DNA of 46,270 nt from an uncultured Planctomycetaceae bacterium (lineage in GTDB: Bacteria > Planctomycetota > Phycisphaerae > SM23-33), in NCBI GenBank assembly GCA_964480425.1, contig CAYZPY010000004.1:1-46270 (forward strand). Reading direction: 5' to 3'. This document shows, one piece after another, positions 14,849 to 18,410 of the stretch. The notes beneath the pieces were generated by a model that did no database searches, had not been told where the DNA came from, and was given only the letters and a program-made list of their open reading frames with translations. The number at the start of each line of letters is the position of its first letter. Within the stretch, counting starts at the first letter, position 1. The position numbers were made by a program, and so were the translations under genes.

Positions 14849-14946
14849 ACAACCTGTGATTGCACATTTTGTCTCGTAGGCGTATTTTATCTGCGCTTTT
14901 CTCGGAATCCTCCGCATACGGTCCACCGGATGATGGAGCACAAACC

Positions 14947-16311
14947 ATGAGCATAAGAATTATAAATACATCACGTAAAGGCGGTCCCGCCGAAGTGGCC
15001 GAACTGCTCGAACACATCCGCGCAGGCGGGCTCGTCGCTCAAGGCGGGCCTTCGCAGGCGGAAATTCGAAATATCGTGGCCGACACCATCCGTTCCGTGG
15101 CCAAGGATGGCGACCGGCGGATAATCGCCGACACCGCCAGACTGCACGGCGTGGAACTGGTGCCGCAGCGATTCGGCGCCAGTGAGGATGAGATCAACGC
15201 GGCCTACAGCCGAGTAAGAGAGGATGGGCGGATTATGGGCGTTATCGCCCGCGCTATCGAGAATGTCCGCCGCTACCAGCAGAAGATACTGGACACACTG
15301 ATAAGCGCGATTAACCGCCCGGACCTGCTGGACGACGAGCATCGACAACTGGGTTTGTCGTTCACGCCCATCAAACGTCTGGGCGTTTACGTGCCCGGCG
15401 GGCGGGCGGTGTATCCGTCTTCGTTGATTATGACGGCCGTTCCGGCGCAGGCGGCGGGCGTGGAGGACATCGCCGTAGTCACGCCGCCGAACGCCGAGGG
15501 AGGGGTAAATCCGTTGATACTTGCCACGGCTAAGCATCTGGGGCTTAAAGAGATATACCACGTTTCGGGCGTGGCGGGCCTGGCAGCACTTGCCTGCGGC
15601 ACACAGAGCATCTTCCCGTCGGTTGACATGATTGTCGGACCGGGAAACGCCTTCATCGCCGAGACTAAGAGGCAGCTATTCGGCAGGGTGGGCATAGACA
15701 GCATCGCCGGTCCCTCGGAGGTGCTTATAATCGCGGATGAATCGGCAAGGGGCGACTGGGTCGCCGCCGACATGCTCGCCCAGGCAGAGCACGCGCCCGG
15801 CTCGGCCGTGCTCGTTACCGATTCTAACAGACTGGCCGAATGTGTGGCCGGCGAGATAGACGCACAACTGGACGGGTTGGAGCGCGCCGACGACGCGCGC
15901 AACGCCATCGAACGATACAGCGCCGTTATCGTCGTTTCCGACCTGCCCGCCGCATGCGCCATGACCAACGAGTTCGCGCCGGAGCACCTCCAGATTATCG
16001 TCGCCGGCGACGCCGAGAAGGACGTCCTGTCGCGCATACGAAACGCCGGGGCGATATTCGTCGGACAATACACGCCCGTGCCGCTGGGCGATTATTACGC
16101 CGGACCGAGCCACGTTCTGCCCACCGGCGCCACGGCCAGGTTCTCCTCGGCGCTTAGTTGCCTGGATTTCCTCAAGTCCTCCAGCGTAATTCGTTACGAC
16201 GATCGCGCCCTTGCCGACGACGCCGACGACGTGACCGAGTTCGCACGACGGGAAGGACTGACGGCACATGCTCGTGCAGTAGATATTAGAAGCCGCGAAT
16301 TACGCGAATAA
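14947..16311 (+). CDS. hisD: Histidinol dehydrogenase
   Basis: GVYVPGG, VGPGN, GIDSIAGPSE, QAEH, APEHL, GDYYAGPSHVLPT. Confidence 0.97.
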   Translation: MSIRIINTSRKGGPAEVAELLEHIRAGGLVAQGGPSQAEIRNIVADTIRSVAKDGDRRIIADTARLHGVELVPQRFGASEDEINAAYSRVREDGRIMGVIARAIENVRRYQQKILDTLISAINRPDLLDDEHRQLGLSFTPIKRLGVYVPGGRAVYPSSLIMTAVPAQAAGVEDIAVVTPPNAEGGVNPLILATAKHLGLKEIYHVSGVAGLAALACGTQSIFPSVDMIVGPGNAFIAETKRQLFGRVGIDSIAGPSEVLIIADESARGDWVAADMLAQAEHAPGSAVLVTDSNRLAECVAGEIDAQLDGLERADDARNAIERYSAVIVVSDLPAACAMTNEFAPEHLQIIVAGDAEKDVLSRIRNAGAIFVGQYTPVPLGDYYAGPSHVLPTGATARFSSALSCLDFLKSSSVIRYDDRALADDADDVTEFARREGLTAHARAVDIRSRELRE

Positions 16312-16678
16312 AGGGCGCTTGCATAGAGGTATGCAAGAAACCTGGTTGCGGCTTTTTGGAAAAGGTTTACGAGAATGCTCTTGTGCACGAATTGCGCAAA
16401 TACGGATTTGAAGTAAAACGGCAGGTTGCGTTCCAGATATTTTACGACAGGGTTTTAGTCGGAGACTTTGCAGCCGACGTTGTTGTTGACGATAAATTTA
16501 TTATTGAAATAAAAGCGACAGAGAAAAATTCTGATATTTATAAAGCACAATTGATTAATTACCTTAAAGCTTCCGGACTGACGCTCGGTTTTGTGGTGAA
16601 TTTCGGAAAGGAACAGTGCGATTTTCAACGGATTGTTTAAACAAAATAATTTTGTCGTTATTCGCGTAATTTGCGGCT
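16291..16678. mobile_element. AT-rich GxxExxY cassette bounded by 21-bp inverted repeats
   Basis: AGCCGCGAATTACGCGAATAA (16291-16311) versus TTATTCGCGTAATTTGCGGCT (16658-16678), 20/21 complementary; interior visibly AT-richer than the flanking his genes. Confidence 0.6.
16308..16640 (+). pseudogene. GxxExxY family PD-(D/E)XK nuclease-like protein, N-terminus lacking a normal start
   Basis: Frame reads IKGACIEVCKKPGCGFLEKVYENAL..ADVVVDDKFIIEIKA..AQLINYLKASG...GFVVNFG. In-frame TAG at 16287, and the first start codon (TTG 16356) lies inside the GxxExxY motif. Confidence 0.8.
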
Positions 16679-16685
16679 GATAAAA

Positions 16686-17738
16686 ATGCGATATTTCCGT
16701 AAAGAAATCCAGGATCTGGCCCCGTACGTTCCCGGCGAGCAGCTGGCGGCGGGGGCGAAAGTTATCAAACTCAACACCAATGAGAATCCGTACCCGCCGT
16801 CGCCAGCGACGGTTTGGGTTCTGCGGAATTTCGACGCCGAGGCGCTTCGGCGCTACCCCGATCCGCAGGCCGCAGCAGCACGACACACCGCCGCCGGCGT
16901 GCTCGGCGTGGAGGACCAATGGCTTCTTGCGGGAAACGGAAGCGACGAACTGCTGGCCATGATAATACTCGCCGCCGCAGGCCCGGGGCGCTGCGTCGCA
17001 TACGCCACGCCCACGTACGTGCTCTATCGCACGCTGTCGCAGATGCACGGCGCCCCGCCCGTCGAGGTCCTCTACGACGACGATTACAACCTGCCGGTGG
17101 ATGAACTCATCGCCGCCGCCGCCGACGTGACGTTCGTCTGCTCGCCTAACAGCCCATCGGGTACGATGCCCTCGCCCCAGCAGCTCGAGCGACTCGCAGA
17201 AGGCCTTTCCGGACTGCTGGTCATAGACGAGGCATATATAGACTTCGCCGACGACCAGGCAGCGGGCCTGGAACTGGCGCAGAAGCGCGATAACGTCATC
17301 GTCCTGCGGACGCTCTCGAAGGGATACTCCCTTGCGGGCCTGCGGTTCGCCCTGGCGGTGGCGAATCCCGACATCCTGGCGGATCTCGTCAAGGTCAAGG
17401 ACAGTTACAACGTGGATGCGGTCGCGTGCGCCGTGGCCGAGGCCGCCTTCAAGGATCAGGCGCACAAGAACGCCAATGCCAAAAAGGTCCGCGCCTCGCG
17501 GGAAAAGCTCACCGGCGAACTGGAGCGTCTCGGATTCAGGGTCATCCCGTCGCAGTCGAATTTCCTGCTGGCGCGCCCGTCCGACGGCGACGCCGCCCGA
17601 CTGTACGAATCGCTCAAGGCAAGGAGAATCCTGGTTCGGTATTTCATTCAGCCGCGCCTGGACGACAAGATCCGCATCACCGTAGGCACCGACGAGCAGA
17701 ACGACGCGCTTGTTGAGGCGCTCGGCAAACTATTGTGA
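16686..17738 (+). CDS. hisC: Histidinol-phosphate aminotransferase
   Basis: KLNTNENPYPPSP, GNGSDE, CSPNSPSG, DEAY, RTLSKGYSLAGLR, RITVGT. Confidence 0.97.
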   Translation: MRYFRKEIQDLAPYVPGEQLAAGAKVIKLNTNENPYPPSPATVWVLRNFDAEALRRYPDPQAAAARHTAAGVLGVEDQWLLAGNGSDELLAMIILAAAGPGRCVAYATPTYVLYRTLSQMHGAPPVEVLYDDDYNLPVDELIAAAADVTFVCSPNSPSGTMPSPQQLERLAEGLSGLLVIDEAYIDFADDQAAGLELAQKRDNVIVLRTLSKGYSLAGLRFALAVANPDILADLVKVKDSYNVDAVACAVAEAAFKDQAHKNANAKKVRASREKLTGELERLGFRVIPSQSNFLLARPSDGDAARLYESLKARRILVRYFIQPRLDDKIRITVGTDEQNDALVEALGKLL

Positions 17739-17746
17739 AGAATTAT

Positions 17747-17768
17747 CCGCGAATTACACGAATTACAC
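17747..17768 (+). repeat. 9-mer tandem array related to the GxxExxY cassette ends
   Basis: CCGCGAATTACACGAATTACAC, 8 bp after the hisC stop. Confidence 0.8.
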
Positions 17769-17772
17769 ATAT

Positions 17773-17781
17773 TGCTATAAT
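17773..17781 (+). promoter_or_regulatory. Extended -10 promoter element upstream of hisB
   Basis: TGCTATAAT (TGn-TATAAT), 35 bp before the hisB ATG. Confidence 0.55.
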
Positions 17782-17816
17782 GCTTTTGTCACCCTGTTTG
17801 CTAAGAGGCGAATGCA

Positions 17817-18410
17817 ATGAACAATCGCACGGCTGAGATAAAACGTAAAACCAAAGAAACCCAAATCGAGCTGACGCTAAACCTCGACGGAGATGGGCAA
17901 GTCAACTGCGAGACGGGCGTGGGCTTTCTTGACCACATGATCGACCACCTCGGCAAGCACAGTATGACCGACATCGAACTGAAGGCCCGGGGCGACCTGC
18001 ACGTCGATTATCACCACACCACCGAAGACGTGGCCATGTGTCTGGGCGAGGCGCTGGCCGAGACGCTGGGCGACAAGGCGGGTATCCGCCGATACGGGTG
18101 GGCCTCGGTGCCCATGGAAGACGCCCTGGCCGAGGTGGCCGTCGACCTTTCCGGAAGGGCGGCGGTGGTGTTCAACGCATCCTTCGTCGGCGGAAAGATA
18201 GGCGAGTTCGACACCCAACTCATCGAGGAGTTCCTCCGCCGCCTGGCGGTTACCTGCGGCATGAACCTCCACGTTAACGTCCCTTACGGCAGCAACGACC
18301 ACCACATCGCAGAAGCGATATTCAAGGCCTTCGCACAGGCGCTGCGCCGGGCGAAGGCGCCCGACCCGGACCGCCCCGGACAGGTGCCCTCGACAAAAGG
18401 ATCGCTTTAA
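17817..18410 (+). CDS. hisB: Imidazoleglycerol-phosphate dehydratase
   Basis: RKTKET, TGVGFLDHM, GDLHVDYHHTTED, NDHHIAEAIFKAF, PSTKGSL. Confidence 0.98.
   Translation: MNNRTAEIKRKTKETQIELTLNLDGDGQVNCETGVGFLDHMIDHLGKHSMTDIELKARGDLHVDYHHTTEDVAMCLGEALAETLGDKAGIRRYGWASVPMEDALAEVAVDLSGRAAVVFNASFVGGKIGEFDTQLIEEFLRRLAVTCGMNLHVNVPYGSNDHHIAEAIFKAFAQALRRAKAPDPDRPGQVPSTKGSL

Follow-up and report, generated by a model that had tools for sequence, protein, structure and literature searches.

A probable decaying GxxExxY cassette between hisD and hisC of an uncultured planctomycete, and the inverted arrays that frame its relatives

We analysed a 46,270 nt stretch of DNA (the window; contig CAYZPY010000004.1, positions 1 to 46,270, assembly GCA_964480425.1) from an uncultured Planctomycetaceae bacterium, in which hisD and hisC are separated by a short AT-rich segment bounded by inverted repeats. 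We interpret window positions 16286-16683, with a probability of roughly 0.55, as a decaying GxxExxY cassette: a small insertion module in which a gene for a PD-(D/E)XK protein of ~130-150 aa would lie between mirror-image arrays of units with a 7-nt core. Framing by inverted arrays is a family-wide property of GxxExxY genes and extends across phyla.

Results

Inverted arrays frame GxxExxY genes in many phyla

The initial annotation of the window had proposed looking for inverted arrays beside GxxExxY genes in other genomes, and such arrays proved to be the rule. TIGR04256 matches were present in 29 of 41 related genomes, at 0-6 copies each. For the loci of these relatives we took the best ungapped inverted repeat between the 300 nt upstream and the 250 nt downstream of the gene and compared it with 30 shuffles; the observed repeat beat every shuffle at 24 of the 27 loci that had enough flanking sequence, the exceptions being L038, L040 and L054. 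A wide sample limited to one genome per species and seeded with the protein of relative G023 gave 80 loci from Planctomycetota, Acidobacteriota, several proteobacterial classes, Chloroflexota, Bacteroidota and others, of which 75 had enough flanking sequence. Here 65/75 loci beat all 20 shuffles and 58/75 reached a score of at least 15. When each upstream flank was paired with the downstream flank of another locus, a score of 15 was still reached in 13/75 cases because the same core recurs between loci.

The arms consist of tandem units sharing the 7-nt core C-R-C-N-R-A-K (CACAGAT, CGCAGAT, CACAGAG, CACAAAG, CGCCGAT and CACGAAT, with CGCGAAT in the window). Position 6 of the core is A in 96% of 388 units, the anchor having used positions 1-3 only. 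The unit period, scored at 77 loci, is 10 nt in 44, 9 nt in 20, 8 nt in 8, 7 nt in 2 and some other length in 3. Full-text literature searches, with subscription journals and supplements outside their reach, found no paper on repeat-framed GxxExxY cassettes; the papers that mention GxxExxY, PMC8934634 among them, do not deal with its function, and PDDEXK_3 is a table row in PMC3424549. The cassette class appears to be undescribed.

The repeat-framed segment of the window

The AT-rich, repeat-bounded stretch reported in the initial annotation was recovered with its coordinates intact. The GC content is 0.34-0.44 within the element and 0.62-0.68 outside, and a repeat search returned a long inverted pair of 26 nt (16286-16311 and 16658-16683), 88% complementary and with an arm spacing of 346 nt, whose 21-nt core, read from the sequence, is complementary at 20/21 positions with a single mismatch. 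The left arm is built of two 9-nt units (CGCGAATTA and CGCGAATAA) preceded by AGC. Chance was ruled out as the source of the repeat by the inverted-pair search and by motif shuffles: with up to 2 mismatches allowed, three copies of the 16-nt motif CGCGAATTACRCGAAT are found in the window where 0.11 would be expected, and 0/100 shuffles reached three. As had been noted, hisD reads SRELRE-stop across the left arm, with its TAA at 16309-16311, and 7 nt separate the end of the right-arm core at 16678 from the hisC ATG at 16686. A profile scan found no transposase inside the repeats, and the only frame of the insert that matched a protein family was the GxxExxY frame; an Rfam search of 15800-18300 at E values up to 1 returned no match.

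The frame 16290-16640 gave full-profile matches to PF13366 (E 1e-33, 116.6 bits against a cut-off of 22, profile positions 5-116 of 117) and TIGR04256 (E 4e-36, 123.9 bits against a cut-off of 35, profile positions 4-116 of 116), in agreement with the GxxExxY protein with a D...EIK motif that had been recognised from the letters; the motifs are GFLEKVY and D...EIK. It keeps 11/11 residues that are invariant in an alignment of 29 family members, including G21, E24, Y27, D63, E73 and K75. AlphaFold2 (AF2) returned a confident alpha-alpha-beta3-alpha-beta2 model (pLDDT 94.7), which shows a minimal PD-(D/E)XK fold. The nearest Foldseek matches were Cas4 (4ic1, E 2.5e-4, TM 0.53-0.62), lambda-exonuclease-like nucleases and Hjc resolvases, with 2eo0, 2wiw and 1gef at a TM of about 0.5 to the model. 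A sequence search of the PDB gave no match at E values up to 1, and a PADLOC scan yielded only a weak Cas4b similarity (E 0.006). A homodimer prediction for the 116-aa protein scored 0.00 against a mark of 0.42, which speaks neither for nor against a dimer. The arms had been described as bounding the gene, but the left arm is not outside it: the profile-aligned stretch begins within this arm, which shares its first codons (KPRITRIKGACIEV...).

The window copy is defective and most likely inactive. From the in-frame TAG at 16287 up to the GxxExxY motif its frame contains none of the codons ATG, GTG and TTG, the first TTG being the L of GFLEKVY itself. The initial annotation had considered a copy without an in-frame start to be possibly internally deleted, and alignment to the G023 orthologue locates the deletion: ~95 nt are missing between the left arm and the IKGAC codons, among them the start codon and ~20 codons. 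Two further positions that are each conserved in at least 90% of the 29 sequences are changed (H15 to C and L18 to P). The alternative put forward at the time, expression by frameshifting or reinitiation from hisD, found no support. In its broader form, in which the copy is still expressed from a near-cognate start (ATT at 16299 or ATA at 16308) or through ribosome slippage or reinitiation at the hisD end, this explanation appears highly improbable. It could draw on the 116-codon frame that has stayed open in AT-rich DNA with all its invariant residues, and on the hisD stop falling within the first codons of the GxxExxY frame. It would have to contend with the missing start codons, the loss of ~20 N-terminal codons possessed by all four orthologues, the changes at H15 and L18, the loss of the whole cassette from the sister genome G001, and a low-depth contig of run X4 that lacks a base at 16559. 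For annotation, the hisD tail should be called repeat-derived and the frame 16290-16640 a pseudogene.

Public reads contained the stretch in four DNA contig runs from one study and in no RNA run, and one contig spans 16163-16761 unchanged. No contig joint skipping the cassette was found in these runs, whose depth of 3-5 is uninformative for rare excision or expression. The contig in run X4 is the only one there to cover 16559; its missing base, at a depth of 3.27, would frameshift the remnant; it could reflect variation in the population or a mistake of the assembly.

The hisD-hisC junction in relatives

The end of hisD was taken from 29 relatives, in 24 of which the start of hisC was also seen. 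Among these 24, the junction holds a GxxExxY gene in four (G017, G023, G022 and G008; 58-68% identical to that of the window), a four-helix-bundle gene (PF05635, 129 bits) between inverted GGAGTAGTAGTTAGG arrays in one (G002), and a hairpin-bearing spacer of 76-399 nt in nine; in the other ten the genes are at most 48 nt apart. At all four GxxExxY junctions the hisD TAG is followed immediately by CCGCGAA(TTA or CGG)CGCGAA, and the inverted arm, ending TTCGCGGC, is placed 7-21 nt before the hisC ATG. These four orthologous copies are intact, having a start codon and ~20 N-terminal codons more than the window copy.

Five genomes share a cassette subtype with the ends AGCCGCGAA...TTCGCGGCT at the hisD-hisC junction; a sixth (G004) has it 3' of a TatD-like gene, where the ends read AGCCGCGAAC...GTTCGCGGCT and overlap the upstream TAG. 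The his junction of G004 is empty, although this genome carries the his-type cassette elsewhere. All six CGCGAA-ended cassettes form one clade in the GxxExxY tree (support 100/99). In the same-genus sister genome G001 the junction reads AGCCGCGAC-TGA-TAAA-ATG, in which 8 nt of the left arm survive, those of its outer end. Its AGCCGCGAC, 10 nt long, is a near-palindrome of the stem base, a footprint and not a clean empty site; we read it as the probable deletion scar of a lost cassette. The footprint in G001 and the deletion in the window together suggest that the cassette is decaying within this genus. Homing to the hisD-hisC junction across phyla was rejected: only 1/80 loci of the wide sample lies there, and it is the G023 locus itself.

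Other junction spacers have their own structure. The nine hairpin spacers include inverted arrays without an open reading frame (ORF), made of CACGAAT units in G009 and CACAGAG units in G015. The 905-nt hisD-hisC spacer of G017 (L006) carries ORF-less CGCGAAC-armed hairpins as tandem duplicates on both sides of its GxxExxY gene, sharing the same 19-nt linker, in a stretch that includes a run of N. Unrelated GC-rich hairpins occur in the spacers L025 (G003), L011, L017, L018 and L030, including a ~60-nt inverted repeat in a 399-nt spacer.

Cassettes lie in sense orientation behind stop codons

Both neighbours are co-oriented with the GxxExxY gene at 22 of the 26 loci whose neighbours could be called by third-position GC content (GC3). 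The position of the upstream stop codon was counted at 87 loci, using plus-strand ORFs of at least 80 aa, relaxed to at least 50 aa for frames open to the edge of the locus. Excluded from the set were the fragment L062, L063 with its short flank, the repeat-less L038, L040 and L054, and those wide loci that scored below 14 or failed against the shuffles. An upstream ORF stops within 60 nt before the left arm or inside it at 77/87 loci, and at 44/87 the stop ends at most 12 nt from the first base of the arm. On the other side, a co-oriented ORF usually starts 2-30 nt past the end of the right arm. The row for the window (L003) is wrong in these context counts and in the mismatch counts below, a spurious GC-rich pair having been chosen there; it contributes 17 of 2947 positions to the latter. 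The initial annotation's observation that the repeat supplies the hisD stop extends beyond the window, since the upstream TAG overlaps the element end at both the his and the TatD-like sites; the element thus seems either to bring the stop codon along or to target it.

One locus departs from this arrangement. L144 (G015:C43, ~126700-127250) starts a few bases past what appears by eye to be the 3' end of a tRNA gene and not behind a protein stop codon. An intact GxxExxY cassette in G001 (L051) occupies a junction that in the assembly of the window (G000) is C34:3272-3836 and is occupied by unrelated remnants (~560 nt), one frame of which looks by eye like a zinc-finger antitoxin; the two were rejected as a clean filled and empty pair on account of these remnants. 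In this lineage, small modules seem to pile up in operon spacers.

Derivatives in this genome and parallel four-helix-bundle cassettes

Cassettes decay into ORF-less hairpins, single arms and footprints. The 2.48-Mb assembly G000 holds a total of ~7 arrays of the window's unit: ORF-less inverted arrays of CGAATTAC-type units with 30-50-nt loops on five other contigs (Table 1), and single CGAATTAC-type arrays on C107 and, in the window, between hisC and hisB. Compared with G000, G001 lacks the C69 and C18 hairpins, has a degenerate version of the C75 hairpin and conserves the array after hisC; at C69 the spacer is too diverged for the ends of the hairpin present in G000 to be placed. The array after hisC, ATCCGCGAATTACACGAATTACAC, stands directly 3' of the hisC stop in the hisC-hisB spacer (17739-17816). 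Apart from the window copy, the assembly has a single trace of a GxxExxY gene, on C40 (L002). This copy is internally deleted, so that its N-terminal ~40 codons run out of frame into the C-terminal LINFN part, and it is framed by different inverted units (CACAGAAAA / CTCAGAGA type).

Genes for PF05635 four-helix-bundle proteins, found in 37/41 relatives, have the same architecture. Inverted arrays flank 23/28 of the PF05635 loci tested, here with a 7-nt period and an AGGNNNN unit (AGGGACT, TAGGCAA, AGGCTGG and AGGTCGT). Two decayed PF05635 genes in G000, on C144 and C23, one with two stops and one truncated, each lie in an operon spacer between inverted arrays of their own short units. By coordinates, G016, G007, G022 and G009 carry a four-helix-bundle cassette directly 3' of hisC. 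The array type follows the cargo, CRCNRAK with GxxExxY and AGGNNNN with four-helix-bundle genes, which suggests that each protein may recognise its own arrays.

Table 1. Coordinates of the features around the hisD-hisC junction of the window, and of related remnants elsewhere in the assembly
Feature	Position	Strand	Evidence and remarks
hisD, histidinol dehydrogenase	14860..16311	+	PF00815, E 1e-133; last 7 codons and TAA within left arm
Left repeat arm	16286..16311	+	Two 9-nt units, core CGCGAAT, behind outer end AGCC; same ends in orthologous cassettes
GxxExxY / PD-(D/E)XK frame	16290..16640	+	116 codons and TAA; no canonical start; probably a pseudogene
GxxExxY motif, GFLEKVY	16350..16370	+	G21, E24, Y27 invariant in 29 sequences
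Putative catalytic D...ExK (D63, E73, K75)	16476..16514	+	Invariant alignment columns; AF2 model of PD-(D/E)XK-type fold, pLDDT 94.7
Right repeat arm	16658..16683	+	Inverted-repeat search; pairs with left arm in RNA fold
hisC, histidinol-phosphate aminotransferase	16686..17738	+	PF00155, E 1e-54; aligns from residue 1 with hisC of relatives
Single partnerless array CGCGAATTA-CACGAATTA-CAC between hisC stop and hisB	17746..17768	+	Same unit family; same place in G001
ORF-less inverted array	C18:4829-4873
ORF-less inverted array	C59:2122-2189
ORF-less inverted array	C69:4599-4657
ORF-less inverted array	C75:3564-3632
ORF-less inverted array	C182:315-391
Internally deleted GxxExxY copy (L002)	C40:5790-5960	-	Framed by different inverted units
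Decayed PF05635 gene	C144:4169-4474	-	In operon spacer, between inverted arrays
Decayed PF05635 gene	C23:6799-6957	+	In operon spacer, between inverted arrays

Arrays as DNA sites or as an RNA stem

The arms of the window can pair as RNA. In a fold of 16276-16695 they do so in both the minimum free energy (MFE) and the centroid structure (MFE -119.1 kcal/mol, z -3.55), and 0/100 shuffles fold as well. One rival explanation builds on this pairing: the insert would be an RNA element resembling the intervening sequences (IVS) of 23S rRNA, its arms acting as a stem in the hisD-hisC transcript from which the insert is looped out or excised by RNase III, with the nuclease as a passenger. The sense orientation within operons, the adjacency of the cassette ends to stop and start codons, and the same architecture around genes of PF05635, a family named after the 23S IVS, all suit this explanation, as does the Coxiella IVS, which according to PMC4990558 is excised by RNase III and shows decay of its ORF and start region.

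The pattern of arm mismatches points the other way. At the 87 loci, 2670 of 2947 aligned positions are Watson-Crick pairs, and the sense-strand mismatches comprise 85 G·U-compatible and 82 A·C positions (p 0.88), of which A/G differences at the degenerate R positions make up the majority. Selection on an RNA stem should let G·U pass and not A·C, so that this lack of bias, together with a core shared across phyla, favours DNA sites for protein binding over an RNA stem, with the sequence recognised in either orientation as it is at the ends of transposons. A stem alone would not require a 7-nt core to be conserved over phyla and protein clades; non-pairing units of one arm change together, as from CGCGAAT to CGCGAAC in G017, G022 and G004; and Rfam has no match. 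We consider the RNA element unlikely and favour the view that the core sequence, and not pairing on the transcribed strand, is what is probably kept.

Selection, movement and residence

Movement of the cassettes is real, but old or rare. Genome G015 contains two cassettes at unrelated loci, one of them directly behind an apparent tRNA gene, whose homology covers the cassette and its arms and ends there, the outer flanks being unrelated. Identity between the two is 0.88/0.96/0.44 at the three codon positions, against 50/60 for the left arm with its outer part, 77/93 for the leader and 42/60 for the right arm; non-coding parts have thus diverged much less than synonymous sites. This is also the best within-genome pair, at 79% identity, and the absence of any near-identical pair implies that movement is rare or ancient. 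The cassette proteins are under strong purifying selection, as estimated from dN/dS values of 0.05-0.11 (computable dS in 4/12 pairs). The GC content of the gene tracks that of its flanks (r 0.87) and is on average 0.10 lower, the window copy being extreme (0.41 against 0.62). A relative was found in 8 of 72,556 plasmid records.

These data also bear on a second rival, a resident host gene: an ordinary, vertically inherited small nuclease, for example in repair or defence, whose arrays are operators or terminators and which does not move. Low dN/dS, GC content that follows the host and the scarcity of plasmid-borne relatives are what it would predict, as are the lack of near-identical copies and a his-junction copy that occurs in five genera with a protein identity (58-68%) similar to that of hisD (64-68%). 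It accounts poorly for the patchy presence of the gene (29/41 genomes, 0-6 copies, differing loci), the same cassette and ends 3' of a TatD-like gene in G004 with an empty his junction, the two G015 copies that are homologous within the cassette only, the many decayed or ORF-less copies, and a gene GC always ~0.10 below the flanks; in defence, the PADLOC scan offered only the weak Cas4b similarity. We judge a resident gene to be decidedly unlikely.

Several observations weigh against our interpretation of a DNA module recognised by its own protein. Among 55 relatives' loci there is no cassette pair with at least 90% nucleotide identity, and GC content that tracks the host fits a long-resident, possibly host-useful gene equally well. 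Neither a target-site duplication nor an exact element border could be defined. On a quick tree of hisD 18/27 forks are open, which makes one old insertion followed by losses indistinguishable from repeated insertion. The arms do pair as RNA, and the range of unit periods, 7 to 11 nt, is hard to square with helical phasing on duplex DNA. The correlation between protein clade and array type is no proof of recognition, as the two have a common descent, and the four-helix-bundle cassettes, which share the architecture, show that the nuclease is not required for this lifestyle. The initial annotation had pictured a selfish unit mobilised by its nuclease; the repeat-bounded unit without an internal transposase, present at unrelated loci, survives from that picture, whereas the nuclease is a hypothetical mover: copy numbers are low, the proteins look long resident, and the four-helix-bundle cassettes do without a nuclease.

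Discussion

A decaying GxxExxY cassette at the hisD-hisC junction would fit the following scheme. The arrays may be DNA binding sites for the encoded protein, laid out like the multi-site ends of transposons, and through them the protein may occasionally move the unit or else maintain it. The gene would be expressed by read-through transcription from the host operon, and a stop codon within the element end would render insertion at gene ends harmless. A broader proposal, which we put forward only tentatively, is that GxxExxY and four-helix-bundle cassettes might together make up a class of minimal mobile or self-maintaining elements, in which a small protein recognises the 7-nt-core arrays of its family at both ends of its gene; in the GxxExxY case the PD-(D/E)XK nuclease would cut there and so move the unit to operon stop codons without a classical transposase, and the 23S IVS would be a special case.

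In Planctomycetota, Acidobacteriota, Bacteroidota and other phyla, few small proteins of unknown role are as common as GxxExxY and the 23S-IVS-type four-helix-bundle proteins, and the origin and spread of rRNA intervening sequences have long been unexplained. The shared architecture provides a testable handle, the protein against its own repeat. If these proteins do act on their own arrays, they would represent a new class of enzymes for the maintenance or movement of DNA units, and would explain many odd hairpins in operon spacers as well as the repeat peptides present at N-termini where gene callers have read through the arrays.

Comparison with known systems

In its AF2 fold and its E...D...ExK residues the window protein resembles Cas4, Hjc and lambda-exonuclease-like nucleases, from which it differs in its negligible sequence similarity, the lack of an Fe-S cluster domain and the family-specific GxxExxY helix motif. 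The ends of Tn7 and Mu, and miniature inverted-repeat transposable elements (MITEs), have several short direct repeats per end, with the ends inverted, and ORF-less derivatives exist. Unlike these, the cassette encodes no enzyme of the DDE, serine, tyrosine or HUH type, no target-site duplication could be defined for it, and there are no recent multi-copy bursts.

In REP/REPIN-RAYT systems an enzyme gene likewise stands between inverted copies of a short repeat, ORF-less hairpin doublets are scattered intergenically, and residence is long and largely vertical; the RAYT is an HUH/Y1 transposase, the REP arms are single palindromes, and copies number in the hundreds. The GxxExxY cassette is similar in having ORF-less inverted doublets elsewhere in the genome. 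It is unlike them in that the flanked gene is PF13366 and not a Y1 transposase, in that ~7 arrays in 2.48 Mb take the place of hundreds, and in its tandem-unit arms.

The closest described counterpart is the 23S IVS with an S23p/PF05635 ORF, as in Coxiella and Leptospira, which is likewise an insert of 400-700 nt with one small ORF and inverted repeats, there pairing as RNA. It too is tolerated by the transcribed unit that contains it; decay affects both its ORF and its start region, and it is patchily distributed (PMC4990558). Against this, the window cassette lies at an mRNA operon junction and not in rRNA, its cargo is a PD-(D/E)XK nuclease, and its arms are arrays with a conserved 7-nt core that show no mismatch bias of the RNA type. 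The two meet in the relatives studied here: their PF05635 genes occupy repeat-framed cassettes of this kind, some of them within the same his operon.

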